Shown: in pieces, positions 38,967-54,788 of the stretch
Numbering within the stretch: position 1 is the stretch's first letter
Layout of the letters: every line of letters starts with the position of its first letter
Assembly: GCA_016218805.1 (NCBI GenBank)
Contig: JACRCW010000065.1
Location: 94,040 to 158,039, forward strand
Direction of reading: 5' to 3'
DNA: 64,000 nt
From: Deltaproteobacteria bacterium
GTDB taxonomy: Bacteria > Myxococcota > JACRCW01
The notes under the pieces: generated by a model
Databases searched by the model: none
Told to the model about the DNA's origin: nothing
Seen by the model: the letters and a program-made list of their open reading frames with translations, nothing else
Translations under genes and position numbers: made by a program

Positions 38967-39013
38967 CTCTGCCACCCGGGCGCGGCTTTTGTCCCCGGAA
39001 AACGGAGGCGGAC

Positions 39014-40168
39014 ATGCGGATCCTGTACGGCGTGGTGGGTGAGGGCATGGGCCACGCGACGCGCAGCCGCGTGTCACTGGATCACCTGTTGGCCGGCGGC
39101 CACGAAGTGCGTGTGGTGGTCAGCGGGCGCGCGCACACGTTTCTCACCGACCGTTTCAAGGACCGCCGCAACATCCGCTTTGACGAGATTCACGGCCTGC
39201 ACATGAACTACGAAGGCAACGCCGTGGACAAGTCCGAAAGCGTGCGCACCAACCTGGAGGACGCGCCGCGCGGGCTGCTGCAGAACGTGGAGGTGTACCG
39301 CAAGGTGGCGGAGGACGGCTTCAAGCCGGACGTGGTGTTCAGCGACTTTGAATCGTGGGCGTACCTGTATGGACTCAACCACCGCATCCCGGTGGTGAGC
39401 ATTGACAACATGCAGGTGCTCAACCGCTGCCGCCACGACGACGACGTGACGCATCACCGCGGGTTCCACTTCCGGCTGGCCAAGGCGGCCGTGAAGCTGA
39501 AGCTCCCCGGCGCGTACCACTACCTGGTCACCAGCTTCTTCTTCCCGGAGGTGCGCAAGCCGCGCACCACGCTGGTTCCGCCCATCCTGCGCGCGGAGAT
39601 CCTGGCCGCGCGCCGCGAGCCCGGCGCGCACGTGCTGGTGTACCAGACCGCGGCGGCCAACACGGACCTGGTGCCCACGCTCCGCAAGCTGCCCTTCCCG
39701 TTCCGCGTGTACGGCCTGGGCCGCGCGGGCACGGAGGGAAACGTCACGCTGTGTGCGTTCTCGGAGACGGGCTTTGTGGAGGACCTGCGCACGGCCAGGG
39801 CGGTGGTGGCCGGCGGCGGCTATTCGCTGATGGGTGAGGCGGTGCACCTGCACGTGCCCATGATGTCCATTCCGCTGGAGGGCCAGTACGAGCAGGAGCT
39901 CAACGCGCGCTACCTGCAGAAGCTGGGCTACGGCGTGTTTGCGCGCGCGTTGGACGTGGACGTGATGGCGCGGTTCCTGGCGGACACGGACCGCCACGCG
40001 CACGCGCTGCAGCAGTACCGGCCCGCGGACAACAGCATGCTCCTCGCCGCCGAGGACGAACTGCTGCAGCGCGTGCAGCGCGGCCAGTCCGCCCCGGTGC
40101 GCCTGGCAAGCCCATCACTGGGCAGCTACGGCGGCAAGGCCGGCGCGGACGGGGACGACGTCCACTGA
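39014..40168 (+). CDS. MJ1255/VC2487-family glycosyltransferase
   Basis: GGAGG RBS. 'MRILYGVVGEGMGHATRS' N-terminus is typical of this GT-B family. Confidence 0.7.
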   Translation: MRILYGVVGEGMGHATRSRVSLDHLLAGGHEVRVVVSGRAHTFLTDRFKDRRNIRFDEIHGLHMNYEGNAVDKSESVRTNLEDAPRGLLQNVEVYRKVAEDGFKPDVVFSDFESWAYLYGLNHRIPVVSIDNMQVLNRCRHDDDVTHHRGFHFRLAKAAVKLKLPGAYHYLVTSFFFPEVRKPRTTLVPPILRAEILAARREPGAHVLVYQTAAANTDLVPTLRKLPFPFRVYGLGRAGTEGNVTLCAFSETGFVEDLRTARAVVAGGGYSLMGEAVHLHVPMMSIPLEGQYEQELNARYLQKLGYGVFARALDVDVMARFLADTDRHAHALQQYRPADNSMLLAAEDELLQRVQRGQSAPVRLASPSLGSYGGKAGADGDDVH

Positions 40169-43200: not shown

Positions 43201-44117
43201 GCTGGCCCACCATGCTCAACGGGTTTGTGAATGACGTGCTGCCCTACGTGGGCAAGGGCATGCCCAACGCGGTGGCCGCGGCGGACCTGGACGGTGACGG
43301 CAAGGATGAGGTCATGGCGGCCAGCATGGGCGGCCCGGTGATGAAGCTGGACGGGCAGGCGCGGCCGTTTGGCCTTGTGCAGGCCACCGAAGGGAGCCGC
43401 GAGTACTTTGGTCCCGCGGCCAACACGACGGAGAACGTGGTGGCTTCGCTCATCAACAACCCCACGGTGGCGGACCTGGACCAGGACGGGATGCTGGACG
43501 TCATCAACGGCACGGCGGGGCTGCAGCTGGCCGGTGCGGCGGAGAGCGGCGGCCAGCGCATCCCGTTCCAGCACAGCGTGTCCGCGTGGAATCTGGAGAG
43601 CGGCTACCAGCTGGATGGTTTCCCGCAGGTGGTGGAGGACTACCAGTTCTTCATGAACTACGCGGTGGGTGATATTGACGGTGACGGCGCGCATGAGGCG
43701 GTGATGGGATCCGGCGTGTACCTGGTGCACGCGTTCAACCCGCAGGGCGAGGAGCCCGAGGGCTGGCCCAAGAACACGCATGGCTGGGTGATCACCACGC
43801 CCGCCCTGGGCGATCTGGATGGCGACAACAAGATGGAGGTTGCCGTCAACACGCGTGAGGGGTGGCTGTTTGTGTGGGACATGCCCGGCACCGTGCAACG
43901 CGCCAACTCCGGCGCGCCCAACCCCATCCAGTGGCCCGGTTATCACCACGACGAGCGCAACACCGGCAACATCCGCACAGCGCTGCAGGACTACGGCATG
44001 CCCCACGGGCTCGGTTTGGCGCCCTGCGGGTGCCGGTCGTCGTCGTCATCGGACGCGCCGCTGGCGTGGACGCTGCTGGGGTTGGCCGCGCTGGTGTGGC
44101 GGCGGCGGAGGCGCTGA
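40236..44117 (+). CDS. secreted subtilisin-like (S8) serine protease with FG-GAP/VCBS beta-propeller repeats and MYXO-CTERM anchor
   Basis: GTG start with GGAGG RBS. Asp 'VAVLDSGI', His 'HGTGEA', and repeated 'DLDGDG/DMDGDG/DVDGDG' FG-GAP motifs. Tail 'PCGCRSSSSSDAPLAWTLLGLAALVWRRRRR'. Confidence 0.8.
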   Translation: MRHALLLLPFAFASSSALAVVGATEATHANTRGHEHLDALKVIRGARTADKVVTVTAEAGEGWTATAIGGFLSVSPSTHQSGPGRVTVSFSTETLTGNGPFTGEVVITPDTGSAVLLPVNLDVWPRDLSDLTPAQTRDRAFWVSDGDFGGSWELWGFLPDDTSHPGENAGALLDAPERTPCTGGSMTGCTRAGQAGLAAGQSADRAWMLSRGDPRVMVAVLDSGIRWHERALIDKAYLNARELAVCPPPGATAASPATFDVNHDGVFNVRDYDWADPAYADVNGNGRLDPQDLIHGHNPANNTPCSDDVDDDLNGYVDDISGWDFFWNDNDPSDDTDYGHGTGEAKDSVAQGHDDTGAVGICMRCTLLNVRVGDSFMADINQFAEGVAFSVDSGASVVQEALGTVNNTPFAQQAITYAWEHNVLVVGSAADETSRHHNYPANLDHLINVHAVLYDTDGQPGGWRRATTFLNFNNCTNYGGHLQLSTPGGGCSSEATGKTSGQTGLLYSYYRQLQDGADTYYDIPLTAAEAFQVLIGSADDIDVEGAEADPGALSLKKYVSNEGWDEAFGYGRNNARRMLEMVRDRRIPPEAYIESPKFFEQFDPDVTPQIAIAITVGNRRFDSVAWKVEAAPGVAPRETDFVPVGDGTHAQAGTLTTTVNMSASLIPRPDVPSADVDAYTVTLRLTATGTQGTDTVRGEFRKTISVRKDPQRRRALALDLNASGEASPRFSDVDGDGRDELVLAVSDGRVHAFRADGSELPGWPVKLNHYRSFSDETCTAADAPTRRRCHRSAPAYQQIDVTDLRSATVSAASLADLDGDGAPEKDVVVSDLDGYVYAFSAAGQLLPGFPVHMNPDHVSEFIWGKYVPTEERFAEQGFFAQPVLVDMDGDGDLEIVLSGMDQWVYAWNHDGTEVNGWPVHVENTEVPVGRNGRFNERIIAPVTVAFLDDDELPELVVGTEEIINNTSSSYLYALDHRGNAAPGGAFMPGWPTMLNGFVNDVLPYVGKGMPNAVAAADLDGDGKDEVMAASMGGPVMKLDGQARPFGLVQATEGSREYFGPAANTTENVVASLINNPTVADLDQDGMLDVINGTAGLQLAGAAESGGQRIPFQHSVSAWNLESGYQLDGFPQVVEDYQFFMNYAVGDIDGDGAHEAVMGSGVYLVHAFNPQGEEPEGWPKNTHGWVITTPALGDLDGDNKMEVAVNTREGWLFVWDMPGTVQRANSGAPNPIQWPGYHHDERNTGNIRTALQDYGMPHGLGLAPCGCRSSSSSDAPLAWTLLGLAALVWRRRRR

Positions 44118-44755
44118 TGCGGCGGGGCCTTGCAGTCCTGGGGACCGCCGCGTGGGTGCTGGCCGGCAGCTGCGGGAATGTGGATCCCAACCGGCCGGAT
44201 CACGTGGTGGTGGAGCACAGCGAGAGCGTGGATATCCCGGGCGGCCCCAGCCTGGGCATCCTGGCGCCGGACGGGCTCAACCCCGCGAATGCCGGCGGCG
44301 GCCTCACGCGCGCGCTGTCCTCCACGCTGTCCAACCAGGGCGTGTCCAAGGGTGACGTGAAGAACGTGTCACTCACCCAGTTGCACCTGGCGGTGACCGC
44401 GCCGCTGCGCAACGGCGCGCCCATCCAGGATCTGCGGTTCCTGGACCGGCTCACCATGACCATGTCCGCGGAGGGACTGCCGGACGTCGTCGTCGCGGAG
44501 AGCCTGCCCGCCGCGGGCGGCGACGGGGGGACGCAGTCACCGACGTTTGGTCCGGGCGTGTTTGCAGTGGACATTCCGCCGGTGCCCGGGTTGGACCTCA
44601 AGGACTACGTCACCCAGGACGCCATGACCGTGAAGGTGGAGGTCACCGCCAACGGACGCCCCGCGCTCAGCTGCACCGTGCAGTTCACCGTGAAACTGGA
44701 CGCGCAGTTGAATCCCGTTGGCGCTGCCGCCAACCGGTTGCCGTTCTTGCCGTGA
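44117..44755 (+). CDS. lipoprotein, hypothetical (translationally coupled to the S8 protease)
   Basis: ATGA overlap with the upstream stop. Lipobox 'VLAGSCGN'. Confidence 0.5.
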   Translation: MRRGLAVLGTAAWVLAGSCGNVDPNRPDHVVVEHSESVDIPGGPSLGILAPDGLNPANAGGGLTRALSSTLSNQGVSKGDVKNVSLTQLHLAVTAPLRNGAPIQDLRFLDRLTMTMSAEGLPDVVVAESLPAAGGDGGTQSPTFGPGVFAVDIPPVPGLDLKDYVTQDAMTVKVEVTANGRPALSCTVQFTVKLDAQLNPVGAAANRLPFLP

Positions 44756-44826
44756 CGCGCGCCCGCGCCCGCGGCCCAGGCGCCTTTTCCCGACGAGCTT
44801 GACCACCGCCCGGCGCAATCCACATC

Positions 44827-45378
44827 ATGCGTCGGGGTGACGTCATGGGCGCGCTGACCGCCGTTCCGTTCCTGCTTGCATCCGTGATGGCGGCGGCCGC
44901 CGCGGAGAGCCACCGCCCGGCCGTGCTGGTCTTCCACGTGGACGCGGGGCCGGGCGCGTCCCCACAAGCCGGGCAGGACCTGGGTGATGCGGTGCTGCAG
45001 GTCACCCGCGGCTCGGAGGCGTTTGGGCGCGTGATCAGCCTGCAGGAGTTGGCGTCCGTGGTCCCGCCGGACGAGATGAAGCGGATGGGGTCCTGTACGG
45101 ACGTGTGCGGCGGCGAACTGGCGGACAGCACCGGGGCGGACTGGGTCATCACCGCCGAGGTGACCAGGAACGGACAGGCGTCCACGTTGGTGCTGCGCCT
45201 GTTTCTGGCGCGCGGCGGGAGTGCGTTTGTCGCCCGCGCGCCGCTCGGCCGCGCCGCAGGAGCCGCGTTGGCGGGTCCCGTGCGGTCGGCGCTCGCTGAC
45301 GTGCTGGGCCAGGCGAAGCTCACCGGCGTGTCCGCGCGCCCCGCGTCCGGACCCACGCCGCCGGCCCGGCCCCGCTAG
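44827..45378 (+). CDS. hypothetical secreted protein
   Basis: Signal-like 'ALTAVPFLLASVMAAAAAE'. No motif. Confidence 0.4.
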   Translation: MRRGDVMGALTAVPFLLASVMAAAAAESHRPAVLVFHVDAGPGASPQAGQDLGDAVLQVTRGSEAFGRVISLQELASVVPPDEMKRMGSCTDVCGGELADSTGADWVITAEVTRNGQASTLVLRLFLARGGSAFVARAPLGRAAGAALAGPVRSALADVLGQAKLTGVSARPASGPTPPARPR

Positions 45379-45431
45379 CCACCGTCTTCCACGACGAGAA
45401 TCCCCGGCGGCCGCCTGGTCCGGCAACACCA

Positions 45432-46007
45432 TCACGACCAGAAGTGCTCGCCGGGGCGGGGCAGGTACATGCCGGTGGTGCGCGCATACGCCGCGTACTC
45501 CTCAGCCAGGTCACTGGCGCGGAACTTCCGTTCCTCGTGGAGCGCGGCCGCGTGGAACACCGCCAGCACCAGCGCCGTGGGCACCAGCAGCCACGGCTCG
45601 CCCGTGACGACGACGCCCGCGACGTAGGACAGCGCGTAGCTGGTGTAGAAGGGATGCCGCACGTACGCGTACGGGCCGTCGCGCTGGACGTGCCGCGGCA
45701 CGTCCCCGCTGAACGCAATGCTCAGCCGGGTCCGGCGTGTGGTCACGGCGCACCAGGCGAACAGCGCCGCGGACAGCGTCAGCAGCACCAGGCCCGCCGC
45801 TGCCGCGCCCGTCCCCGGCGGGCCGGAGACCGCCAGCGCCGCGCACACGGCGACGTTGGCGGTCACCACGGCAGCGCGCACGGCCCACAACGCGCGCGGC
45901 ACGCCTTGCGGCATGGTGAACACGCGGAACACGCCCACCGCCACGACGAGGTAGGTGGCCGCGAACAGTCCGAGCGTGAGCGCGTGCAGGGCCTCCACGC
46001 CCGTCAC
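45432..46007 (-). CDS. ICMT/PEMT-family integral-membrane SAM-dependent methyltransferase
   Basis: '…VRHPFYTSYALSYVAGVVVTGEPW…HEERKFRA…EYAAYARTTGMYLP' matches the isoprenylcysteine carboxyl / phospholipid N-methyltransferase C-terminal signature. GTG 46007 overlaps the upstream TGA. Confidence 0.65.
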   Translation of the reverse strand: MTGVEALHALTLGLFAATYLVVAVGVFRVFTMPQGVPRALWAVRAAVVTANVAVCAALAVSGPPGTGAAAAGLVLLTLSAALFAWCAVTTRRTRLSIAFSGDVPRHVQRDGPYAYVRHPFYTSYALSYVAGVVVTGEPWLLVPTALVLAVFHAAALHEERKFRASDLAEEYAAYARTTGMYLPRPGEHFWS

Positions 46008-49000
46008 TCCTCCGTCACCAGGCGGCCGAACAACCCCAGCCCGGCGGCGAGCTCGTCGAGCGCTTCGATGTTCTCGCGGCGGATCCGGCCGGTGAGCTCC
46101 ATCTGCTGCTCCGCCAGCGCGGCGAGCAGGCCTTCCGCCGCGCACGCGAACAGCGTCCCCGGGGCCGTGTACGGGCTGAACCGGAAGCGGGGGTCCCGCG
46201 GCAGTGCCACCAGCCCGGCACCCACGACGCGGGCGTTGCGGCGCTCACGCGCGAGGCGCGGGGCGGTGGCCCGCGGCTGCGAGACGTCCACCACCAGCAC
46301 GGGCCGTTCCGCGGCCAGGTGCTCCGCGCGGATGACCGGCTCCGGGCTGCTCACGGCCGCGACGACCACGTCCGCGTGCTCCAGGTCCAACATGTGCGTG
46401 GACCATGCGGCCTCCACGCCGTCAGCCCGAAGCTGCGCCGCGCGCTCCTCCAGCCGCGCTTCCGAACCCGGCCGCCCGACCAGCAGGACAGAGCGGCCCA
46501 GCGCCCGCCGCCCCGCGAGAAGCTCCACCACGGCGGACCCGATGTTGCCCAACGCACCGACGACGGCGATGCGCGCGGCCTGCGGGTGTCCGCGCTCAAG
46601 GCTCATCCCGGCTTCCGCGGCGAGCTTGCGCACCTGCCGGACCAGCACCGCCGTGGTGAACGAGTTGCCGGAGACCACGCGCGTGCCCGGTGGCGGGGCC
46701 AGCAGCGTCCCGTCCCGGGACACCACGCTGGTGTGCCCGCCCAGCGCGACGACGCCGCAGCCGTGGCGCCGTGCGATGTCCGCCGCGTCCTGCAGGCGGT
46801 CCAGCAGGAAGTCACCGCGCCCGTCTGCGCGCAGGTGCTGCATCTCCGCCGCGGTCACCGGCAGCGTGATGGTCAGCAGCCAGGCGCGGCCGTCAAACAG
46901 GTTGGCGGACGACGTCACCAGCGGCTCCAGGCCGCACAGGACCTGGAAGCGGCGCACCAGCTCCAGGCGCCGGGCGGTGCCCAGCGCCGCCAGCGACGGG
47001 GAGTCGCCCACCAGTTCGCGCGTGGGATGGATGAAGTGGTGCACGAACGCGACCCGGCGCGCACCCTCCGCCGCGGGCTGCCGCTCCGTGCGGAAGGCGG
47101 ACAAGCGCCGTTCCCGGGAGGGCCGGCGGGTGGCCGCCGGCGCATGCCCCGCCAGGTGCGCCGTGAGTTCCAGCAGGTCTGCGCCCGCCAGGGCCGCTGC
47201 CAGGGCGCGGAATGCACGCGCGGTCCACTCCACCTCCGCGTCGCGCAGGAACGCGGAGGGTTCCACGCGCAGCACGTCCGGCGCGGACGTCGTTGGCAGC
47301 ACGCGCACGCGGTGGCGGTGCAGCAGGTAGGAGGCGGCCAGATGGCCCAGGCCGCGCGCGGCAATCGCCTCCAGGATGGCTGACCCGGCGGCGCGCGGGA
47401 CGCGCAACTCCACGCCCAGCAACAGGCCCCGGCCGCGCACCGCCACCACCGCGTCGGGGTGGTCCCGGTGCACGTCCTCCAGGACCGCGCGCAGCCGTTC
47501 GCCCGCGCGGCGTGCGCGGCCCGGCACGTCCTCGCGGTCCATCACGCGGAGGACCGCCATCCCCACGGTCGATGAGAAGGAGTCCTCGCCGTAGGTCGTG
47601 GCGCGGTGTTCATCCATCGCCTCCACGTAATGCGCCCGGTCCACAAGGAGCGCGGCGAGCTTGGCCACGCCGCCGCCCAGTGACTTGCCGAGCAACAGGC
47701 AGTCCGGCACCACCCGCGCGCCGGCGGGGTCGGCGCAGGCCAGAAACGTCCCGGTGCGGCCCATCCCGCACTGGATCTCGTCCAGGATGAAGGGGACACC
47801 CGGCAAGCGCAGCTGCGCAAGCCACTCGGGCGGGACCTCCACGACGCCGCCTTCACCCTGCACGGGTTCCGCGATGGTCGCCAGCACGTCCAGAAACGGG
47901 AGCCCGACGCGGGACACGCCGCCCGGACCGGTGACCAGGCCGTGCAGCCGCACCGTCTCGTGGGCCACGGTCTGGGCCAGGCGGGTCCGGGCCTCGTCGG
48001 TTCCGCGGGGGTCCAGGAACACCGTGCGCACGCCCAACAGCGCCGTGAACGGGGCGCGGTGCTCGTCGGAGCCGGTGGCCAGCAGCGCGCCCAGGGAGCG
48101 GCCGTGGAAGCCGCGCTGGAGGGCGATGACCACGGGACTCCGCCCCTGTAGGACGGACCGGTTGTGCGCGGTGACCTCGTCGACGAGCGCGCGTGGCGCG
48201 CCCCCGTGGCGCCAGCCCCGTTCCAGCGCCGCCAGCCTCGCGGCCCGGTGCAGCGCGGCGTGTTTGAGTGCCAGGTCCGTCGCCTCGGCACCCGTTGAGA
48301 CCGGGCACACCACCCAGCGCCGCCCGGTCTCTCGCCCCACGCGGCGGGCCAGCGCCTCGGCAAACCGCGTCGTCGCGGGGCGGGCTGAGAACTGGTCCAG
48401 CACGGGCACGCCTTCCAGCGCCTGCCGCGCCGCCGCCAGGACCTCGGGGTGGCCGTGGCCCAGCAGGTTGGCGCCGTACCCGCCGGCCAGGTCCAGCACC
48501 GGCTCGTCGTCACCCGCGCGGAACAGCAGGTCGCCTTCGCCGCGCGCATACGCCACGTCCAGGCCGGCTGCTGCCACCCGGGGGGCGACGCCCGGGTGCA
48601 GGAAGCGGGCGCGTGTGCCCGCGCCGGACTCCGGTGCGGGGATCCGTACGACGTGGGGATGGCACGCACCCGGAGCGCGGGCCGCGTCCAGCAGCGCGGC
48701 GTGCTCACGCTCCGCGCGTGCGTGGTCCGGTTTGCCGGGGCCGCGCAGCGGGACGCCGCCACGCACCAGTGCGACGGCATGGATGCGCGCGTGCAGGAGC
48801 GAGGTGTCGACCTCGGCACGCTGGGCACAGGCCTCGCGCACGCGCTCCTGCAGCCCCGGGTCCGCGGGGTCACCATCCACAAATGCCAGCCCCACCAGGC
48901 CGGCGTTTGCCGCGTCCGGGAACGCCAGCAGGCCGAGCACCTCGGGGAGCTGCGCGGCGTGTTCGCGCTCCACGGCGGCGCGCACGGCCTTCACCCCCAG

Positions 49001-50269
49001 GCCGGTCTTGATGACGTCGTCATCGGCGCGCCCGGCGTGGTGGATGTCCGTGCCGTCCCACCGCGCAAGGTCCCCGGTGTCCACCCATTCTCCAAGTGCG
49101 CCGTCCCCACCCAGCACGCCCGCGGCTCCAAACGGCGTGGACACCACCAGCCGTCCCGGCGCCGTCCGGTCTCCGCCGGGAAAACGCACACCCAGCCGGC
49201 AACCCGGGAGCGGCCGGCCCAGACCGCCCCCGCCCAGCAGCGTGGTGCTGACCTGTTGCGTTTCCGTGGTCCCAAACGCGTTGGCCACCCGCACGCCGCG
49301 CAACGCCGCCGCCACCGCGGGGTCCCAGCCCGTCCCGGAGAGCACCACGCACCGCAGCTGCCCGGCCAGGCGCGGCGCCGCCACCACGCCGTTGTGCGCC
49401 ATCCACGCCCGCACCAGAGCCGGCCCGCACGTCACGTGCGCCGGCGGAAAGGACGCCAGCAGGCGGAACGCGCGTTGCGGTTGCTCCGCCATCCACTCCG
49501 GGCGCACGAACAACGCCGTGGAACGGTTCCACAGCGCGTGCAGCAGCGCGCGCGCGCCCATGGTGTGGGACAGCAGCGGCACCAGCGTGGGGCCACCCAG
49601 CAGGTCCGGCGTGAACAACCCCGCCAGCTCAAACGCATGCGCGCCGGTGAGCAGGGCGGACGCGGTGTAGCGCAGCCAGCGCGGCTCACCGGTGCTGCCC
49701 GTCGTGGCGAACACCAGGGCGTCCGGGGCCGGCGGGACCTCGGGCAGCGCCGGCGCGGTACCCGTGTGCGCCAGCTCGTCGTGCAGCGTGTGGCATGCCG
49801 CGCCGTCCGCGCGGCACAGTGCGGCCAGCGTCTCCAGCGCCGCGGCCTGGGCGTCCGTTGGGCGGCTGTCCGGGGCCACCGCCACGTGCCGCGCCCCGGA
49901 ACGCCGCAACACGTCACGCAGCGCCCCGGCGTCAAACCCCATGGGCAGCACCACCCGCATGCCCGCGGCCACCAGGCCCACCGTCGCTGCGGCCAGTGGC
50001 AGCTCCGGCGCGCCGGGCAGGCGCACCAGCAGGACGGAGGCGCCGGGAGCCAGGGCGTGGTCACCCGTCCACCGCCGCAGGTTCCACGCCGTCGTGCGCA
50101 GTGCACCCAGCGTGAGCGCCAGGTCCACGCCGTCGCGCTCGCCCGCCAGGACCACCGCGTGGTCGTTGGGGTCATCCGGGCCCAGGAGCGAGGCAAATGA
50201 CCGGAACCGCGGCGCGCGCCCGTCAAGCCCGGTGCGGGACTGCAACAGGACCTCCGGTGCGGCGACCAT
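46004..50269 (-). CDS. tri-domain enzyme: acyl/aryl-AMP ligase (adenylation), class-III PLP aminotransferase, and aldehyde-forming acyl-ACP reductase (AAR)-like NAD(P)-binding domain
   Basis: Adenylation motifs 'ATTGSTGEPRW', 'FGTTETQ', 'DTGDLARW…GRADDDVIKTGLGVKAV'. Aminotransferase motifs 'LAGGYGANLLGHGHPEV', 'ILDEIQCGMGRTGTF', 'LLLGKSLGGG'. C-terminal 'ALGGHTSVV…IAVVGALGNIGSAVVELL…LFACAAEGLL' resembles cyanobacterial AAR (my recollection of '…GGFTSII…VAVVGATGDIGSAVCRWL…MFACFAEAMLL'). Confidence 0.8.
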   Translation of the reverse strand: MVAAPEVLLQSRTGLDGRAPRFRSFASLLGPDDPNDHAVVLAGERDGVDLALTLGALRTTAWNLRRWTGDHALAPGASVLLVRLPGAPELPLAAATVGLVAAGMRVVLPMGFDAGALRDVLRRSGARHVAVAPDSRPTDAQAAALETLAALCRADGAACHTLHDELAHTGTAPALPEVPPAPDALVFATTGSTGEPRWLRYTASALLTGAHAFELAGLFTPDLLGGPTLVPLLSHTMGARALLHALWNRSTALFVRPEWMAEQPQRAFRLLASFPPAHVTCGPALVRAWMAHNGVVAAPRLAGQLRCVVLSGTGWDPAVAAALRGVRVANAFGTTETQQVSTTLLGGGGLGRPLPGCRLGVRFPGGDRTAPGRLVVSTPFGAAGVLGGDGALGEWVDTGDLARWDGTDIHHAGRADDDVIKTGLGVKAVRAAVEREHAAQLPEVLGLLAFPDAANAGLVGLAFVDGDPADPGLQERVREACAQRAEVDTSLLHARIHAVALVRGGVPLRGPGKPDHARAEREHAALLDAARAPGACHPHVVRIPAPESGAGTRARFLHPGVAPRVAAAGLDVAYARGEGDLLFRAGDDEPVLDLAGGYGANLLGHGHPEVLAAARQALEGVPVLDQFSARPATTRFAEALARRVGRETGRRWVVCPVSTGAEATDLALKHAALHRAARLAALERGWRHGGAPRALVDEVTAHNRSVLQGRSPVVIALQRGFHGRSLGALLATGSDEHRAPFTALLGVRTVFLDPRGTDEARTRLAQTVAHETVRLHGLVTGPGGVSRVGLPFLDVLATIAEPVQGEGGVVEVPPEWLAQLRLPGVPFILDEIQCGMGRTGTFLACADPAGARVVPDCLLLGKSLGGGVAKLAALLVDRAHYVEAMDEHRATTYGEDSFSSTVGMAVLRVMDREDVPGRARRAGERLRAVLEDVHRDHPDAVVAVRGRGLLLGVELRVPRAAGSAILEAIAARGLGHLAASYLLHRHRVRVLPTTSAPDVLRVEPSAFLRDAEVEWTARAFRALAAALAGADLLELTAHLAGHAPAATRRPSRERRLSAFRTERQPAAEGARRVAFVHHFIHPTRELVGDSPSLAALGTARRLELVRRFQVLCGLEPLVTSSANLFDGRAWLLTITLPVTAAEMQHLRADGRGDFLLDRLQDAADIARRHGCGVVALGGHTSVVSRDGTLLAPPPGTRVVSGNSFTTAVLVRQVRKLAAEAGMSLERGHPQAARIAVVGALGNIGSAVVELLAGRRALGRSVLLVGRPGSEARLEERAAQLRADGVEAAWSTHMLDLEHADVVVAAVSSPEPVIRAEHLAAERPVLVVDVSQPRATAPRLARERRNARVVGAGLVALPRDPRFRFSPYTAPGTLFACAAEGLLAALAEQQMELTGRIRRENIEALDELAAGLGLFGRLVTEE

Positions 50270-50287
50270 GGTCCCATCCTCCCGCGC

Positions 50288-51847
50288 TCAGCGCGCGAGC
50301 AGCCAGCCCAGCACCGCGCCCAGCGCCGCAGCCACGCCCGCCAGCAGCGCCGCATCCCACGGCGCCAGGAATCCCGGCGGCGCCGGGCGCACCGCGTTGC
50401 GCGGACCCACGGTGTCCCTGACCGCGGCGGTGGGCGGCAGCAACGCGGCGCGGGCCTGCTCCACGTCGCGCCCGCTGCCCACAAACACCAGCCGCACGCG
50501 CCCCACCTGCACCTCGTCACCGTCATGGAGGACCGCGCCGGGAACCCCAATGCCGTTCACGCGGATGCCGTTGGTGCTCCCCCCGTCCACCACCTCCCAC
50601 CGCCCTGCCTCGCGCCGCAACAGGCCATGCCGCGCGGACACGGACGCGTCCTCCAGCTCCACGTCGCTGCCCGGCTCGCGCCCCACCACCACGTGGTCAG
50701 ACGCCAGGCGGAAGATGCGTCCGCGGCCGGCGCCGTCCCGCTGCACCAGGTGGCACGGACCGCGGAACACGTCAGGACGGCCGGCGGGAACGGGCACCGC
50801 CTGCTCGTCCGTGGTCCGCTCCTCCGCCGGGATACCCAGCTCGTCCGTCAACGCCGCCGCCGCGTAGGGGATGGGTGCGGGCAGCCGCGTGAGCTGGGTC
50901 CCCTCCCGCCGGACCTCGTCATGCTCCGGGCGGCGCGGGGCCGGCAGCGGGCGCGGGACCGCCCCGGCAAACGGCGCCAGCGCGTCCGCCAGCGCCCCGC
51001 CGTGCGGCGGACGCGCCACGGGGTCGGCGTCCAGCGCCCCCCGCAGCACGCGCGCCAGCCCCGTGGGGAGGTCCGGCATCTCGGCCAGGCGGTCCGTCGG
51101 CTCCGGTGTGCTCTGGGACCACGGCGGCGCATCCGGGTCACGCAGCAGCCTCCCCGTCGCCAGCGAAAACAGCAGTGCGGCCAGCGCAAACACGTCGCTG
51201 GGTGGACGGGCGCGCTCGCCCACCAATTGCTCCGGCGCCAGGAACGCCAGCGTGCCCCACACGCGCCCCTGGCCGGTCAGCGTCGTCGCATCCGGCAGCA
51301 GCGCCACGCCAAAGTCCGCCACCACCACCTGTTCGTCCGACGTCACGAACACATTGGAGGGCTTGATGTCCCGGTGGACAATCCCCTGCTGGTGGGGTTC
51401 GGCCAGGGCCGCCGCCGCGTCGTGGGCCACGCGCACGGCCTCGCTCAGCCACAGCCGCCCGCGCCGCAGCAGCAGCTGGTGCGCCGTCAGACCGCGGATG
51501 AGCGGCATGGCGTACCAGGTCAGCGGGCGCGCCCCCGCGCGGTCTTCGCCGTGGTCCAGGATCTTCACCAGGCCCGGGTGGCTGAGGCGCTTGAGAATCG
51601 CAATCTCGCGCCCAAACCGCTCCCGCATGGCGTCCGCCTCCGCGGGCCGCCGCGACGCGTCCATCACCTTGAGCGCCACCTCCTGTCCGTCACGCGTGCG
51701 CGTGGCCCGGTACACCGCCGCCATGCCACCGCGTCCCAGCAGGGAGCGCAGCGTCCACGGGCCAATCTCCACGGGTGCGCCGGGCGGCAGGGGCTGCTCA
51801 CCCTCCAGCGCTGCCGACTGGGATCCGCCCTGCGCCGTGTCACGCAC
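50288..51847 (-). CDS. Ser/Thr protein kinase with C-terminal FHA domain and TM anchor
   Basis: 'LGRGGMAAVYRA…VALK…HRDIKPSNV…DFG…APE'. FHA 'GREPGSDVELEDASVSARHGLL…GSTNGIRVNG'. Confidence 0.8.
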   Translation of the reverse strand: MRDTAQGGSQSAALEGEQPLPPGAPVEIGPWTLRSLLGRGGMAAVYRATRTRDGQEVALKVMDASRRPAEADAMRERFGREIAILKRLSHPGLVKILDHGEDRAGARPLTWYAMPLIRGLTAHQLLLRRGRLWLSEAVRVAHDAAAALAEPHQQGIVHRDIKPSNVFVTSDEQVVVADFGVALLPDATTLTGQGRVWGTLAFLAPEQLVGERARPPSDVFALAALLFSLATGRLLRDPDAPPWSQSTPEPTDRLAEMPDLPTGLARVLRGALDADPVARPPHGGALADALAPFAGAVPRPLPAPRRPEHDEVRREGTQLTRLPAPIPYAAAALTDELGIPAEERTTDEQAVPVPAGRPDVFRGPCHLVQRDGAGRGRIFRLASDHVVVGREPGSDVELEDASVSARHGLLRREAGRWEVVDGGSTNGIRVNGIGVPGAVLHDGDEVQVGRVRLVFVGSGRDVEQARAALLPPTAAVRDTVGPRNAVRPAPPGFLAPWDAALLAGVAAALGAVLGWLLAR

Positions 51848-52036
51848 CTGCTGAACCTATCCCCGGACCTCTGCCCTCCCAAGCGGGTATTCGCGCCCGG
51901 CGTCCTCGCCTCCGCTTGTGTCGGAGCTGGTGCATGGACCCGGTGCCCGCACCGCCCGCGCGTGTGGTGGCGGCCCTGTCCGGCCGCACCCGGGCGCGGA
52001 ACGCGGGGAACGCTTGTCGTCGTCACCGAGACGCCG

Positions 52037-53257
52037 ATGGCGCCCCGCCCGCGGCGGAACAAGCGGCGCCGCTTGCTTCCGCCCGCCCAATCTCCGCAAC
52101 GTGCGCGCGTGACCCGGCTGGCCCCGCTCCTGGCGCTGGTTGGCGCGCTGCTGGCTCCGTCCGCGGCGGGCGCTGCCGAGCACGCGTGGGCGCTGCGCCT
52201 GGAACGCGGGCCGGGCACGCCGGGTTGCCCGGGGCGGGCGCGGCTGGCGGCGGGGATCACGGCCCGGCTTCCGTACGACCCGTGGTCCGCCGCGGGCCCT
52301 GGGCGGGTTGACGTGCGCATTGCGCCCGAAGGCGCGCGCCTGCGCGCCGTGGTGGACATGACGGACGGGGAGGGCCGCCACCTGGGCCGGCGCGTGCTGC
52401 ATGAGTCCCCGCACCGCTGCGCGGACCTGATGGAAGCCGTGGCGCTGACGGTGAGCCTGGCCATGGACCCGCTGCGGGCGCGCACCACGCCCGTCGCGCT
52501 GCCACCGGACGCCGCCCCGGATGACGAGGACGACCCGCCCGACAGCGCACCACCGCCCGCTGAGCCACCGCCCGTCGAACCACCGCCCAGCGCACCACCG
52601 CCCGCTGAGCCACCGCCCGTCGAACCACCGCCCAGCGAACCGCCGCCCCAGCCCGCGCCCGTCCAGCACGCGCCGGCCGTGCCCGCGTCCCCCGCGCGTG
52701 GCGTACGCTTGCCGTCGCTGCCCGCGCTTGCGCGCCCGCTGCTCCCGGCGTGGCGGGTGGATGTGCAGGTGCGCGCGCACGCGCTGGTGGCGCTGGGTCT
52801 GGCACCGCGGCCGCAGCCCGGCGGCCAGGTGGGCGTGCACCTGCGCCGGGGCGTGTGGGAGGCGGGCCTGCAGGCCGGGTGGCTGCTTCCCGCGGGCGTG
52901 ACGCGTGACGGTGCCACGGTGGAGACGCAGCTCTCCACGGCCACCTTGAGCGCGTGTCTGCGCGCAGACCTGGCCTCAGCGTGCGGCCTGGGCGTGCTGG
53001 GCCTGCGGGACGCGCGCGGCCACGGCGCGGGCTTCCTGCGCGAACGCCAGGCGTGGCTCCCCTTTGTCGCCGCCGGCCCGCGTCTCACGGTGGTGCTGCC
53101 CTACGGGCGCGCCACCGCCCTGGCCTTCCACGCGGACTTCCTTGCCGTGCCCCTGCTCACGCGCCTGCGCGAGTCCGCCACGGGAACCACCCTGTGGACG
53201 CAGCCGCCGCTGGCCGTGGTGCTGGGGGTGGGGCACCAGTTCTCCGCCACTCTGTGA
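52037..53257 (+). CDS. secreted hypothetical protein with Pro-rich (EPPPVEPPPSAPPPA) linker. Start uncertain.
   Basis: Hydrophobic 'LAPLLALVGALLAPSAAGAAEHA'. A 45-bp direct repeat at about 52550-52660 encodes 'PPPAEPPPVEPPPSA' twice. Confidence 0.45.
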   Translation: MAPRPRRNKRRRLLPPAQSPQRARVTRLAPLLALVGALLAPSAAGAAEHAWALRLERGPGTPGCPGRARLAAGITARLPYDPWSAAGPGRVDVRIAPEGARLRAVVDMTDGEGRHLGRRVLHESPHRCADLMEAVALTVSLAMDPLRARTTPVALPPDAAPDDEDDPPDSAPPPAEPPPVEPPPSAPPPAEPPPVEPPPSEPPPQPAPVQHAPAVPASPARGVRLPSLPALARPLLPAWRVDVQVRAHALVALGLAPRPQPGGQVGVHLRRGVWEAGLQAGWLLPAGVTRDGATVETQLSTATLSACLRADLASACGLGVLGLRDARGHGAGFLRERQAWLPFVAAGPRLTVVLPYGRATALAFHADFLAVPLLTRLRESATGTTLWTQPPLAVVLGVGHQFSATL

Positions 53258-53331
53258 CGCAGCACTCGCCATGGAAATCCACGCTGTTTCGCGCCCTTGC
53301 GGGAAACCGTGCGCTCGGGTGGGATGCCGTC

Positions 53332-53931
53332 ATGGATCCGCGGCGGTCCCCACAAGTACCCAGCGTGACTCCTTCCGTCGCCGTTGCTGACCCGTTGTCC
53401 GCCCCCGCCGTGCCGCGGGCGGCGCCGGTGACGCTCGCGGAGATCTACGAGGCGCACTTTGACTACGTGTGGCACTGCGTGCGGCGGCTGGGCGTGCCGG
53501 AGAAGGACCTGGAGGACGCCTGCCACGACGTATTTGTCGCCGTGCACCGCCACCTGGCCGACTACGACCCGAGCCGTCCGCTGAAGCCGTGGCTCACCGC
53601 GTTCTGCGCGCGCGTGGCGTCCAACCACCGCCGCAGCGCGCCCGTCCGCCGTGAAGTGGCCCAGGACGAACTCCCCGAGCCGGATACCCACGCCCACGCA
53701 CTGCAGCGCGAGGACGACCGCGCCAACCGCCAGCTGGTGGCGCGCGCCATGGACGGGCTGGACGAGGCGCGGCGCACCGTGTTGGTGCTGCACGACGTGG
53801 AAGGCTGGTCGGTGCCGGACCTGGCGGGTCTGCTGGGTGAGCCCGAGGGGACGCTCTACTCGCGCCTGCGGACGGCGCGGGCGATGTTTGCGGACGCGGT
53901 GCGCCGCTTGCTTGGACGGGGTGACACATGA
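53332..53931 (+). CDS. ECF-subfamily RNA polymerase sigma-70 factor
   Basis: Region 2 'YDPSRPLKPWLTAFCARV'. Region 4 'RRTVLVLHDVEGWSVPDLAGLLGEPEGTLYSRLRTAR'. Confidence 0.8.
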   Translation: MDPRRSPQVPSVTPSVAVADPLSAPAVPRAAPVTLAEIYEAHFDYVWHCVRRLGVPEKDLEDACHDVFVAVHRHLADYDPSRPLKPWLTAFCARVASNHRRSAPVRREVAQDELPEPDTHAHALQREDDRANRQLVARAMDGLDEARRTVLVLHDVEGWSVPDLAGLLGEPEGTLYSRLRTARAMFADAVRRLLGRGDT

Positions 53932-54704
53932 GCACGGAGAGGCTTGCGGACCTGCCACCGGAGGTGGCGCGCGTGCTGGACGCGGAACGCCGGGCACCCC
54001 CACCGCCGGACGGAGCGCGGGACCGCGTACGGCAACGGCTGGCCCTCACCGTGGGCGCGGCTGCCGGGGTGGCGGCGTTCTCCGCCGCCAAGGGGGCGGC
54101 GCTGTCCGCCGTTTCCGGCGCGCTGGCCGGCAAGTCCGGGGCGGGTGTGGCAGGCACCACGCTGGCCTCGCTGCTCACTGCCAAGGTCGTGGTGCCCGCC
54201 GTCATGGTGGTGGCGGTGGCCGGCGGTGTGACGGTGGCGCGCGTGGTGGAGCGTCCGGCGCGCGTGGCGGCGGTGACCGCGCCGGTTGTGGCCCGGCCGG
54301 CTCCGTCCGCGGCTGCGCCCCTCGTCGTCATCCAGCCGGCACCCGCCCCGGCGCCCGCCGTGCAACCCGCCCCGGACCCACGTGCGGTCCCGTTGTCACC
54401 GGTGCCGGTGACGCGCCCGGCCACGGGCACGCTGCCCGCGGAGCGCCGCCTGCTGGACCAGGCGCGGCAGGCGCTGGCGGACCACCGCGGTGACGCGGCG
54501 CTGGTCACACTGGACAGACACCGCGAGCAGTATGCCCGCGGCCAACTGGCGGAGGAGCGTGATGCGCTGCGCGTGATGGCGCTGGCAGACCTGGGCCGCG
54601 CCCCGGAGGCGCGCCGCGCCGCCGTCCGTTTCCTGGAGCGGCACCCGCACAGCGTGCTGCGCAGCGCCGTGGAATCCGCGGTGACCACGGCATCCCCCCG
54701 TTGA
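53928..54704 (+). CDS. putative anti-sigma factor (single TM, Pro/Ala-rich linker, C-terminal helical domain)
   Basis: ATGA overlap with the sigma gene. TM 'VVVPAVMVVAVAGGV'. The position after an ECF sigma gene is typical. Confidence 0.6.
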   Translation: MSTERLADLPPEVARVLDAERRAPPPPDGARDRVRQRLALTVGAAAGVAAFSAAKGAALSAVSGALAGKSGAGVAGTTLASLLTAKVVVPAVMVVAVAGGVTVARVVERPARVAAVTAPVVARPAPSAAAPLVVIQPAPAPAPAVQPAPDPRAVPLSPVPVTRPATGTLPAERRLLDQARQALADHRGDAALVTLDRHREQYARGQLAEERDALRVMALADLGRAPEARRAAVRFLERHPHSVLRSAVESAVTTASPR

Positions 54705-54719
54705 CGGACGGAGCAGCGC

Positions 54720-54788
54720 CATGGATCCGCGCAGTGTCCCACAAGCACATCCCAAGGCGGCCACCCTCACCGGCTGCAGGGAGCAAAC
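54720..54788 (+). other. 22-codon uORF (MDPRSVPQAHPKAATLTGCREQT) whose 5' end duplicates the 5' end of the ECF sigma gene. Its stop overlaps the downstream ATG (ATGA).
   Basis: 'CATGGATCCGCG…GTCCCACAAG.AC' is shared with 53330-53362. The uORF is in the same frame as ORF 54789. Confidence 0.25.

Follow-up and report, generated by a model that had tools for sequence, protein, structure and literature searches.

The 1421-aa protein encoded in the window (the whole 64,000-nucleotide stretch of DNA analysed) joins an adenylate-forming (ANL) domain, a class-III PLP-dependent transaminase (TA) and an AAR-like thioester reductase (TR). We propose, at a probability of about one half, that it is a single-chain converter of carboxylic acids to primary amines of the TamA/TamH type. 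The ANL domain would convert a lipophilic carboxylic acid (most likely a fatty acid) to its adenylate with ATP, and the acyl group would be handed as a thioester to Cys1376 of the reductase. NAD(P)H would reduce this thioester to an aldehyde, which the central transaminase would turn into a primary amine. A translationally coupled PEMT/ICMT-family enzyme would then most probably methylate the hydrophobic amine in the membrane. Both the class of substrate and the sequence of reactions are taken from the characterised PtTamA/PtTamH pair; N-methylation is proposed because the amine is the sole nucleophile on a simple fatty amine.

To our knowledge, natural conversion of fatty acids to amines occurs in two pigment pathways only, and there a carrier protein is required. 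If the protein does carry out all three steps carrier-free, the question arises how the adenylated acyl group gets to the cysteine of the reductase. For one-step fatty amine biocatalysis, the aim that motivated the work on TamA/TamH, an enzyme of this sort would be attractive. The chemistry is probably familiar, and the architecture is what is new. A sequence-only reading of this DNA had known of no characterised enzyme with the tri-domain fusion; our literature search found no characterised ANL-TA-TR fusion either, so this part of the novelty claim stands. The chemistry itself, however, is known from PtTamA and PtTamH, which that reading had overlooked.

Locus organisation

Positions 45432-51847 of the window hold three genes, all on the minus strand, encoding an FHA-domain Ser/Thr kinase, the 1421-aa fusion and a PEMT/ICMT-family membrane methyltransferase. 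The features are as follows.

50288..51847, minus strand: kinase gene, 519 aa, first gene of the minus-strand unit
50270..50287, minus strand: 18-nt intergenic spacer between the kinase and tri-domain genes, with a GGGAGGA Shine-Dalgarno-like run before the tri-domain ATG
46004..50269, minus strand: tri-domain gene, 1421 aa
48635..50269, minus strand: ANL (adenylate-forming) domain, residues 1-545 of the tri-domain protein, from Pfam, a structural model and Foldseek
47150..48634, minus strand: class-III PLP-dependent (omega-)transaminase domain, residues ~546-1040, from Pfam Aminotran_3
46007..47149, minus strand: AAR-like thioester reductase domain, residues ~1041-1421, from PDB, NCBIfam and Pfam matches
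45432..46007, minus strand: methyltransferase gene, 191 aa; the NCBI version has 188 aa and starts three codons later (alternative GTG at 45998)

The three-gene layout had been described from the sequence alone and holds: the open reading frames lie at these coordinates, and third-codon-position GC (0.90 in both the kinase and the tri-domain frame, 0.90-0.95 along the methyltransferase gene) supports coding. The 18-bp spacing between the first two genes and the GTGA stop/start overlap between the last two, both also reported earlier, can be read directly in the DNA. An identical 1421-aa protein is held at NCBI as 'MAG: aminotransferase class III-fold PLP-dependent enzyme [Deltaproteobacteria bacterium]'. 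The size of the 18-nt spacer is compatible with co-transcription of the kinase and tri-domain genes, which is probable. No promoter-like or relevant terminator-like sites were found in 45000-52400, a scan that is uninformative in DNA of 75% GC. Other neighbours in the window include an S8 peptidase/FG-GAP protein, an ECF sigma factor and a Cys-rich repeat protein. Membership of a tambjamine or prodiginine (pyrrole-alkaloid) cluster is ruled out by the gene neighbours.

Domain architecture of the fusion protein

The adenylation, class-III aminotransferase and AAR-like reductase domains named by the sequence-only reading are confirmed by Pfam, NCBIfam and PDB matches. Pfam places AMP-binding at residues 93-383 (59 bits, cutoff 29.9), Aminotran_3 at residues 572-979 (172 bits) and a Shikimate_DH-type NAD-binding domain at residues 1230-1340 (34 bits), as had been expected. 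Residue conservation was counted over 47 full-length relatives of the tri-domain protein.

The ANL domain has zero matches in the PDB by sequence, and its best NCBIfam match is the generic amino-acid adenylation model TIGR01733 (E=1e-10). The core motifs A3 TTGSTGEPR (189-197), A5 NAFGTTE (330-336) and A7 TGD (398-400) are intact, as are A8 GRADDDVIKTG (413-423) and A10 GPGK (510-513), and the ANL motifs are kept in 47/47 relatives. An AlphaFold2 model of the domain (pLDDT 87.2, pTM 0.88) gave 640 PDB matches at E<=1e-3 in Foldseek; the best 50 of the 640 are all ANL enzymes, headed by the olefin-synthase FAAL 7r7e (E=6.6e-26). Values of ~1e-22 to 1e-26 are reached alike by FAALs, aryl-CoA ligases, NRPS A domains and amide synthetases, so these matches do not separate one substrate class from another, a point against the converter reading. 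The model superposes best on the thioester-forming conformers 3cw9, 5t3d, 3rg2 and 7thq (TM ~0.66-0.70, rmsd ~5 A), which weakly supports a second half-reaction directed at a thiol. Judged by its motifs and model, the N-terminus of the protein is a divergent yet intact two-subdomain ANL enzyme. Only 52 representatives among 1.84 billion match it at E<=1e-30; by this count it is part of a small, deeply divergent clade that is almost confined to this fusion.

In the transaminase domain, the Schiff-base lysine K862 (codon 47684-47686) lies within GKSLGGG; D830, E831 and Q833 lie within DEIQCGMGRTG, and H722-G723 are also present. In NCBIfam the whole protein scores best on PigE (217 bits); acetylornithine transaminase follows with 162 bits, and all matches fall far short of the equivalog cutoffs.

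The C-terminal domain had been predicted to be reductase-like, and this is borne out by the cyanobacterial AAR structures 6jzu and 6jzq, which match it at E=4e-10 with FACAAE aligned on the catalytic-Cys motif FACFAE. Residues 74-336 of PigE (4ppm) match at E=4e-6. The domain carries the Rossmann motif G1238-A-L-G1241-N-I-G1244, GGHTS (1177-1181) and SGNSFT (1200-1205), and its catalytic cysteine is C1376 (codon 46142-46144), within LFACAAEG. In NCBIfam it scores 63 bits on the PigE N-terminal region and 62.5 bits on the AAR model TIGR04058, and weakly on a glutamyl-tRNA reductase model too. With a TIGR04058 cutoff of 449.7, and being fused rather than stand-alone, it is not assigned to the cyanobacterial AAR equivalog. 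Conservation of the reductase Cys and the aminotransferase Lys, singled out beforehand as a check, is complete: K862, D830, Q833 and H722 of the transaminase and C1376, E1379, G1238, G1241 and G1244 of the reductase are invariant in all 47 relatives. By these likenesses residues 546-1421 are a TamH-like TA-TR unit, and the window protein is an ANL domain plus that unit in one chain.

Acyl transfer without a carrier domain

Pfam and NCBIfam bear out the earlier view that this is no NRPS or PKS module: carrier, condensation and ketosynthase domains were found neither in the window protein nor in six diverse relatives. The inter-domain linkers (~40 aa between ANL and TA, ~30 aa between TA and TR) are too short, so that a carrier domain has no room, and no ACP gene was detectable within the 64-kb window. 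Given a family with no carrier domain, acyl transfer would proceed by free CoA, by a housekeeping ACP in trans, or by attack of Cys1376 on the acyl-adenylate. Free CoA, with the ANL domain as an acyl-CoA synthetase, is the simplest reading of the hand-off. In FAALs a specific insertion in the N-terminal subdomain blocks CoA thioesterification. The A5-to-A7 spacing of the window domain is ~62 residues and is longer in ordinary ANLs; judged by this spacing, a FAAL-type insertion appears to be absent. Against the converter reading stands the lack of any carrier, fused or encoded nearby, whereas the PtTamH reductase refuses C12-CoA and requires acyl-ACP (PMC9594044).

Relatives that consist of TA and TR alone bear on this point. 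No ANL gene lies within 7 kb of these two-domain loci, and some of them have a fused or adjacent ACP (the ACP-TA-TR relative P0020; L074). It follows that the TR may draw acyl-ACP directly and that the ANL domain may be free for another role. The steps could then run in reversed order, which we consider unlikely: the TR would take acyl-ACP from fatty-acid synthesis, the TA would make the amine, and the ANL domain would adenylate a second carboxylic acid and join it to that amine to give an N-acyl alkylamide lipid. Such an order explains the missing carrier protein. At the two-domain loci, FemAB-like or GNAT-type enzymes that form amides are often encoded separately, which suggests that the amine there is normally acylated, and the ANL model has the amide-bond synthetase McbA as its third-ranked structural match (6sq8, TM 0.68). 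A precedent exists in OlsH, an ANL-superfamily (GH3) amide synthetase that builds a planctomycete aminolipid and is encoded in an operon with an N-methyltransferase (PMC12493201). However, the McbA score is inseparable from those of dozens of thioester-forming ANLs, an amide nitrogen would be a poor substrate for the coupled methyltransferase, and the sole characterised TA-TR system places the ANL step before the reductase (PMC9594044). The DUF3419 protein and 370-aa protein found with the fusion in Bacteroidota also fit a free amine intermediate.

Family distribution and conserved partners

At least 52 GTDB species representatives, from Planctomycetota, Myxococcota, Bacteroidota and other groups, carry the ANL-TA-TR fusion. 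Cultured carriers are Tamlana flava MA10, Carboxylicivirga caseinilyticus A049, Flavobacteriaceae bacterium SZ-1-7 and Ca. Uabimicrobium amorphum SRT547. The kinase/tri-domain/methyltransferase synteny sought in other genomes is not conserved. Instead, the fusion is usually preceded by a gene of the FA_desaturase family, as in 20 GTDB loci and another 5 contigs, or followed by a DUF3419 gene, as in 33 loci. The desaturase is typical of the window's clade and is missing from the window locus, which counts against the converter reading. The DUF3419 clade also has an RND-like transporter, and in the Bacteroidota clade DUF3419 and an unannotated 370-aa protein are additional modifying genes.

The conserved membrane- or lipid-type neighbours, together with the membrane methyltransferase of the window, hint at a lipid substrate. 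The FA_desaturase-family partner is no proof of this because it scores weakly on the arginine hydroxylase GntB. That score would also suit a polar substrate, in which one carboxylate of a polar amino acid or a dicarboxylic acid is adenylated and reduced to a semialdehyde that transamination then turns into a diamine or diamino acid, following GluRS/GluTR/GSA-aminomutase logic (for example aspartate via aspartate semialdehyde to 2,4-diaminobutyrate, or glutamate via glutamate semialdehyde to ornithine). The TA domain does as well on acetylornithine, putrescine and diaminobutyrate transaminase models as on PigE, the amino-acid adenylation model is the best NCBIfam match of the ANL domain, and the TR has its weak glutamyl-tRNA reductase score; GluTR ranks second among the structural templates for the PigE reductase (PMC8341465). 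We nonetheless regard a polar substrate as improbable. All of these scores are far under every equivalog cutoff, the partners (PEMT/ICMT, FA desaturase family, DUF3419, RND-like transporter) are of membrane or lipid type, and the closest TR relatives by sequence and architecture, AAR, TamH and PigE, all act on alkyl thioesters (PMC9594044; PMC8341465).

Members of the family occur in environmentally abundant phyla, always beside membrane- or lipid-modifying partners and never within a pigment cluster, which suggests that an amine-based lipid or surfactant has gone unrecognised. A more specific proposal, and a rather doubtful one, is that the reductase Cys attacks the acyl-adenylate directly in a LuxE/LuxC-like relay within one polypeptide, and that Planctomycetota, Myxococcota and Bacteroidota build from the product an undescribed class of membrane lipids or surfactants derived from fatty amines. 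The predicted modifications are N-methylation in the window lineage, desaturation or hydroxylation where a desaturase partner is present, and both 3-amino-3-carboxypropylation and acylation in the DUF3419 clade.

The methyltransferase and the kinase

The downstream gene had been assigned to the ICMT/PEMT family, and its product passes both Pfam cutoffs (PEMT 35.5 bits, cutoff 25; ICMT 31.1 bits, cutoff 24). Hydropathy gives 4-5 hydrophobic helices, a RHPFY...HEERKF cofactor motif is present, and the ICMT structure 4a2n aligns on the C-terminal SAM-binding region (RHPxY...E). The 191-aa protein is, on these features, an integral-membrane SAM-dependent methyltransferase of the PEMT/ICMT superfamily. 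It shares with PEMT, ICMT (Ste14), LmtA and MddA the Pfam thresholds, the multi-helix membrane topology and the C-terminal motif. It differs in that its NCBIfam matches to ICMT, LmtA and MddA are weak, far under every equivalog cutoff and spread equally over O-, phosphate- and S-methylating relatives; the acceptor atom in known members may be N, O (of a carboxyl or phosphate group) or S. The activity of PEMT/ICMT relatives on carboxylates, phosphates and thiols counts against amine methylation, as does a linkage seen at two loci only.

The second of these loci holds the closest homologue (P0025, 56% identity), which has a 4-nt overlap with the end of its upstream gene; the last 271 aa encoded there are 52% identical to the window TR domain. 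The coupling recurs in this one other, independent relative only (L088), and the persistence of the overlap at 52-56% identity speaks for selection keeping TR and methyltransferase together.

For the upstream gene, the identity as a Ser/Thr FHA kinase and the 18-bp spacing stand (Pkinase 116 bits at residues ~33-280, FHA 52 bits at 386-449 in Pfam; HRDIKPSN, DFG and APE motifs; a C-terminal transmembrane anchor at 494-519, from a hydrophobic segment in the hydropathy profile), whereas conservation does not support a functional linkage to the downstream genes. Counting the window, 9 loci have a kinase homologue near a tri-domain gene, with neither distance nor orientation fixed. Myxococcota and Planctomycetota are generally very rich in Ser/Thr kinases. 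The FHA kinase would be a local regulator at most and not a conserved partner.

Both genes might be mere neighbours, with the fusion working alone or with partners elsewhere and the methyltransferase and kinase serving unrelated membrane and signalling roles. In the 80 GTDB loci (L006-L085) and the other contigs then examined, neither was found directly beside the tri-domain gene; more distant methyltransferase homologues lie in unrelated contexts, and the kinases near other fusions are scattered. For the two genes together we judge this quite unlikely, given the 4-nt stop/start overlap in the window and its recurrence in the diverged L088; for the kinase it is probably right.

Comparison with known systems

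The TR shares with cyanobacterial AAR (6jzu/6jzq) its fold, the GGxTS, TGN and GxxGxIGS motifs and the FAC...E cysteine motif, and in AAR the catalytic Cys forms an acyl-enzyme thioester ahead of hydride transfer (summarised in PMC9594044). AAR differs in being a stand-alone enzyme of 340 aa that takes acyl-ACP from fatty-acid synthesis and passes the aldehyde to the deformylating oxygenase ADO, whereas the window TR is fused to a transaminase and an ANL domain.

Carboxylic acid reductase (CAR; A-PCP-R) and alpha-aminoadipate reductase likewise adenylate an acid with ATP and then reduce a thioester to the aldehyde with NADPH. Engineered cascades of CAR and an omega-transaminase yield amines. 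CAR, however, needs a phosphopantetheinylated PCP and an SDR-type terminal reductase; the window protein has no Pfam match to PP-binding or NAD_binding_4, its linkers are too short for a carrier, and its identification as a CAR was rejected. For direct transfer from ANL to Cys the mechanistic precedent is LuxE/LuxC of bioluminescence, a carrier-free relay in which a fatty acid becomes acyl-AMP, then a Cys thioester, and is reduced with NADPH to the aldehyde. LuxC is an aldehyde-dehydrogenase-type reductase, not AAR-like, and that system has separate subunits and no transaminase.

PigE of prodigiosin MAP biosynthesis (PDB 4ppm; NCBIfam NF053554) is the best NCBIfam match and combines an AAR-like TR with a class-III TA. 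The same two domains stand in reversed order (TR then TA), with the thioester reduced and then transaminated (PMC8341465). PigE also differs in having no ANL domain and in acting on a 3-acetyloctanoyl thioester within the pig cluster, and the window protein scores 217 against its cutoff of 850.

The closest parallel to the proposed function is the tambjamine YP1 tail pathway of Pseudoalteromonas tunicata, which PtTamA and PtTamH serve (PMC5939613; PMC9594044). PtTamA (ANL-ACP) and PtTamH make the C12 amine from the C12 acid in one pot, an experimental precedent for the acid-to-aldehyde-to-amine logic that the sequence-only reading had put forward (PMC9594044; PMC5939613). PtTamH has 941 aa, with G707xxG710xxG713 and C887 (PMC9594044); by its published description it shares with the window protein a TA, a linker (~30-50 aa; ~50 in PtTamH) and an AAR-like TR with GxxGxxG and a Cys. 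PtTamA supplies the adenylation step, as the window ANL domain is proposed to do. The PtTamA domain, however, lies on a separate protein fused to an ACP, whereas the window ANL domain is fused to TA-TR with no ACP in the protein or nearby, and the partner at the window locus is a methyltransferase (a desaturase or DUF3419 in relatives) in place of the other Tam enzymes.

Organisation of the unit

The unit under study consists of three minus-strand genes, listed here in their order of transcription.

50288-51847, minus strand, FHA-domain Ser/Thr kinase, 519 aa
46004-50269, minus strand, tri-domain protein, 1421 aa, joining an adenylating domain (ANL), a class-III PLP transaminase (TA) and a thioester reductase (TR) resembling the cyanobacterial acyl-ACP reductase (AAR)
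45432-46007, minus strand, PEMT/ICMT-family methyltransferase, 191 aa; the NCBI version starts three codons later

The tight packing that had been described from the DNA alone is present at each of these positions: 18 nt, containing a GGGAGGA run, separate the kinase stop from the tri-domain ATG, and a GTGA overlap joins the tri-domain stop to the methyltransferase start. Scanning 45000-52400 gave no promoter-like or relevant terminator-like site, a result of little weight in DNA of 75% GC. Third-codon-position GC (0.90 in the kinase and tri-domain ORFs, 0.90-0.95 across the methyltransferase) carries the mark of coding sequence in a genome of roughly 70-75% GC. NCBI holds the identical 1421-aa protein, from a MAG labelled 'Deltaproteobacteria bacterium', on a 166.6-kb contig.

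The unit comprises exactly three genes, since a convergent plus-strand ORF without a family hit (44827-45375) lies 3' of the methyltransferase and the genes upstream of the kinase are divergent, on the plus strand. A minus-strand ORF of 276 aa (44605-45435), whose start forms a second GTGA overlap with the methyltransferase stop codon, was considered as a fourth member and rejected because codon-position GC favours the plus-strand ORF as the better-supported gene. No further biosynthetic genes were found near the unit.

The three genes lie in a block of about 12 kb (44001-56000) with a GC content of 72.6-75.9%, versus 65.5-72.5% in most other 2-kb bins. Two repeat-rich ORFs and an ECF sigma factor paired with a putative anti-sigma gene also fall within the block, which may be an island or a local codon-usage effect. 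Other features of the window are as follows.

38945-40165, plus strand, Glyco_trans_1_3-family glycosyltransferase (397 bits), 5 kb from the three-gene unit
52118-53254, plus strand, 379-aa ORF without a Pfam hit, carrying a tandem proline-rich repeat (PPPAEPPPVEPPPSAPPPAEPPPVEPPPSEPPP), divergent from the kinase
53332-53928, ECF sigma factor
53928-54701, putative anti-sigma gene
54789-56330, plus strand, Cys-rich protein of 514 aa with repeated DUF7107/Dickkopf-like/EB-like modules, just downstream of the ECF sigma/anti-sigma genes

The tri-domain protein

The three domains proposed by the sequence-only reading were all returned by Pfam, and the C-terminal domain matches the AAR crystal structures 6jzu/6jzq (E=4e-10).

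Residues 93-383, AMP-binding (59 bits)
Residues 572-979, Aminotran_3 (172 bits)
Residues 1230-1340, Shikimate_DH-type NAD-binding region (34 bits)

Linkers of about 40 (ANL-TA) and 30 (TA-TR) residues connect the domains. AAR motifs, the catalytic-Cys motif FACFAE among them, align with GGHTS, SGNSFT, GALGNIGSA and LFACAAEG of the TR domain. Over its full length the protein scores highest in NCBIfam on PigE, the prodigiosin MAP aminotransferase, with 217 bits against a cutoff of 850; the last 391 residues alone match PigE's N-terminal region (63 bits) and TIGR04058, the cyanobacterial acyl-ACP reductase (62.5 bits). The active sites are intact. All 47 full-length relatives (47/47) keep ANL motifs A3, A5, A7, A8 and an A10 lysine, transaminase residues K862, D830, Q833 and H722, and reductase residues G1238, G1241, G1244, C1376 and E1379; these include the catalytic cysteine (C1376) and transaminase lysine (K862) on which the proposed chemistry had been made to depend.

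No PP-binding domain was detected by Pfam in the tri-domain protein, nor in any of six diverse relatives. A hidden ACP was considered for the long gaps between ANL and TA in two relatives (locus L037 and protein P0015); the additional residues proved to be low-complexity inserts within ANL. The tri-domain protein lacks carrier, condensation, ketosynthase and SDR-reductase domains and is therefore neither an NRPS/PKS module, as had been recognised, nor a CAR. A GluTR/GSAM fusion of the haem pathway, named beforehand among the readings that would overturn the proposal, was rejected on its weak hemA similarity (28.6 bits versus a cutoff of 209). Family searches, the structure model, residue conservation and carrier-domain absence together establish that the earlier anatomical description was right in every respect.

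A dedicated ANL clade

The ANL domain has diverged so far that its sequence has no significant match in the PDB. An AlphaFold2 model of residues 1-545 (m672d1b198407, built on 17 family members) is confident (pLDDT 87.2, pTM 0.88). With this model, Foldseek listed ANL enzymes exclusively among the best 50 of its 640 PDB hits (E<=1e-3). FAALs, aryl-CoA ligases, NRPS A domains and amide synthetases score alike (E about 1e-22 to 1e-26), and the structural match does not discriminate among these substrate classes. Among the matches listed, the model superposes best on the thioester-forming conformers 3cw9, 5t3d, 3rg2 and 7thq (TM ~0.66-0.70, rmsd ~5 Å), versus an rmsd of ~10-12 Å for most other listed structures, AMP-, ATP- and acyl-adenylate-bound forms included. 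The C-terminal subdomain is predicted by AlphaFold2 in the thioester-forming orientation. Motifs A5 and A7 are about 62 residues apart, and at that spacing a FAAL-type insertion looks absent. Predicted conformation and spacing are weak hints that would fit a thiol-directed second half-reaction.

An exhaustive HMMER search with the ANL domain (1.84 billion representatives, E<=1e-30) returned only 52 clusters, most of them 1350-1560 aa long. This indicates that the clade exists almost only inside the ANL-TA-TR fusion.

Distribution and recurring neighbours

Word-indexed searching recovered no more than about 19 full-length relatives, and a metagenome scan with the single tri-domain protein gave one unrelated transaminase locus and nothing else. 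When one genome per GTDB species was scanned for the pattern, 80 loci emerged. An ANL-TA-TR gene is present in at least 52 of them, and the scan also gave 28 two-domain TA-TR genes. Carriers of the fusion include Planctomycetota (Fuerstiella, Rubripirellula, Gemmata), Myxococcales/Anaeromyxobacteraceae MAGs, Aminicenantes, Ca. Uabimicrobium amorphum and Bacteroidota, among them the cultured Tamlana flava, Carboxylicivirga caseinilyticus and Flavobacteriaceae bacterium SZ-1-7. Neighbour clustering and a tree separate two clades, A and B, with the following partners (L numbers denote loci or contigs carrying relatives).

FA_desaturase gene directly upstream, same strand (clade B): L003, L005-L013, L015-L017, L022, L028, L037, L039, L043, L049, L051, L086, L087
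DUF3419 cassette flanking the tri-domain gene (clade A): L014, L018-L021, L023-L027, L029-L036, L038, L040-L042, L044, L045, L048, L050, L052-L057, L085

Clade A (Bacteroidota, Aminicenantes and others) has a DUF3419 gene (PF11899, 168 bits) directly downstream in 33 loci, an unannotated gene of ~370 aa also downstream in 28 and an RND-like membrane protein of ~640 aa upstream in 10. We take DUF3419 to be the BtaA family of 3-amino-3-carboxypropyl-transferases. The arrangement resembles a conserved amine-lipid cassette in its own right. Neither the DUF3419 protein nor the 370-aa neighbour had a match in the PDB.

Clade B (Planctomycetota, Myxococcota, Uabimicrobium) has an FA_desaturase-family gene (PF00487, ~270-330 aa) directly upstream, often overlapping, in 20 GTDB loci and on the contigs of the homologues P0002, P0004, P0005, P0006 and P0009. 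The window protein falls in this clade, and no desaturase homologue was found in the 64-kb window, even at E<=10. Another clade-B relative (L001/L046, the P0019 locus of MAG 2_bin.46) is likewise without a desaturase; it has a penicillin-amidase-family gene (N-acyl-amide hydrolase type) 20 nt upstream and a PAE-family esterase downstream of the tri-domain gene.

In NCBIfam the desaturase-family partner has only weak matches, to DesA (a Delta5 desaturase) and to GntB (an arginine hydroxylase). The GntB match would suit a polar substrate, either an amino acid or a dicarboxylic acid, and a diamine as product, as would the TA domain's equal scores on models for acetylornithine and for diaminobutyrate transaminases and the ANL domain's top NCBIfam match, an amino-acid adenylation model. 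The nearest relatives of the TR domain all act on alkyl thioesters, however, and the partners are membrane proteins, and we regard a polar substrate as quite improbable.

The two-domain TA-TR loci (L058-L084) come from Pyrinomonadaceae, cyanobacteria, Rokubacteria and others. Their recurring flanks are alpha-oxoamine-synthase-like (Aminotran_1_2), acyl-CoA dehydrogenase, FemAB-like/GNAT, amino-acid permease and GMC oxidoreductase genes; a small protein, maybe SCP2-like by eye, is also seen. None of these loci has an ANL gene within 7 kb. P0020 (942 aa, JGI metagenome) is an ACP-TA-TR fusion with an N-terminal PP-binding domain where the window protein has ANL, and an ACP-like ORF (L074:9630-9785) lies directly upstream of one two-domain gene. 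Carrier-dependent and carrier-less versions of the TA-TR core thus coexist.

In a rival order of steps the ANL domain would act last, as an amide synthetase, and TR, like AAR, would draw on acyl-ACP supplied by fatty-acid synthesis. Such an order would account for the missing carrier, and it draws support from the two-domain relatives with a fused or adjacent ACP and no nearby ANL, from the amide-forming GNAT or FemAB-like genes that their loci often carry, and from OlsH, an ANL-superfamily amide synthetase known from planctomycete aminolipid synthesis (PMC12493201). Yet in the sole characterised TA-TR system the ANL step comes first, and amides suit the coupled methyltransferase poorly as substrates; we consider this order unlikely.

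Methyltransferase and kinase

The methyltransferase is an integral-membrane protein of the PEMT/ICMT family, with no homologue near loci L001-L085, even at E<=10. Its closest database homologue, P0025 (56% identity), lies on the 2.3-kb metagenomic contig L088, where it shares a 4-nt overlap with the end of a neighbouring gene; the final 271 residues encoded by that gene show 52% identity to the TR domain of the window protein. Retention of the stop/start overlap at 52-56% identity in two loci (n=2) argues for a TR-methyltransferase functional pair. More distant homologues occur in unrelated contexts. PEMT/ICMT relatives methylate amines, carboxylates, phosphates or thiols, so N-methylation can reasonably be expected only for a simple amine product.

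Besides its FHA domain the kinase carries a membrane anchor at the C-terminus, and its catalytic motifs are intact. Around other tri-domain genes, kinases vary in distance and strand, a scatter that fits chance in kinase-rich phyla, and the kinase was rejected as a conserved partner. The anticipated three-gene synteny is thus not conserved: the methyltransferase recurs in one other relative (L088), and kinase placement is scattered. The kinase is a probable operon mate of the tri-domain gene; its membership of the pathway is not supported by conservation. That the three genes are merely adjacent is doubtful for the set as a whole; mere adjacency is probably true of the kinase and less likely of the methyltransferase.

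Proposed mechanism

We propose that ANL would adenylate a lipophilic carboxylic acid in an ATP-dependent step, an acyl thioester would form on C1376, NAD(P)H would reduce it to the aldehyde, and PLP-dependent amination would yield a primary amine for methylation in the membrane. This is the best supported reading, at a probability of about one half. Domain identities and intact active sites are observed. The order of steps and the fatty substrate are inferred by analogy with the tambjamine pathway proteins PtTamA and PtTamH, and the lipid nature of the substrate is supported by context, from membrane/lipid-type partners in every clade.

Acyl transfer could follow one of three routes. Free CoA would be the simplest, yet the PtTamH reductase does not accept C12-CoA and needs TamA acyl-ACP (PMC9594044). 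A housekeeping ACP might serve in trans; no ACP gene was found near the window tri-domain gene. Finally, C1376 might attack the acyl-adenylate directly, in a LuxE/LuxC-like relay.

Comparison with known systems

The acid-to-aldehyde-to-amine logic of the sequence-only reading has a direct precedent that it did not cite. In PtTamH (WP_009837236.1; 941 aa), which belongs to the tambjamine YP1 pathway, a class-III transaminase at the N-terminus is joined through ~50 linker residues to a C-terminal AAR-like TR with G707xxG710xxG713 and C887 (PMC9594044). Together with PtTamA, an ANL-ACP didomain, it turns C12 fatty acid into C12 amine in a one-pot reaction (PMC9594044; PMC5939613). PigE, of the prodigiosin pathway, has TR and TA domains in the opposite order, and thioester reduction followed by transamination was demonstrated (PMC8341465). 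Given these precedents, the chemistry proposed is already established. By the published description of PtTamH, residues 546-1421 of the window protein share its TA-then-TR layout; residues 1-545 would supply the adenylation function of PtTamA but, unlike PtTamA, without an ACP.

The literature searched holds no paper on the ANL-TA-TR fusion or on amine lipids of the phyla that have it, in agreement with the sequence-only reading, which knew of no characterised enzyme of this architecture. Fatty-acid-to-amine chemistry and the TA-TR fusion are therefore already known; what is uncharacterised is the carrier-less ANL-TA-TR fusion, with its dedicated divergent ANL clade, its wide range beyond pigment clusters and the membrane partners specific to each clade.
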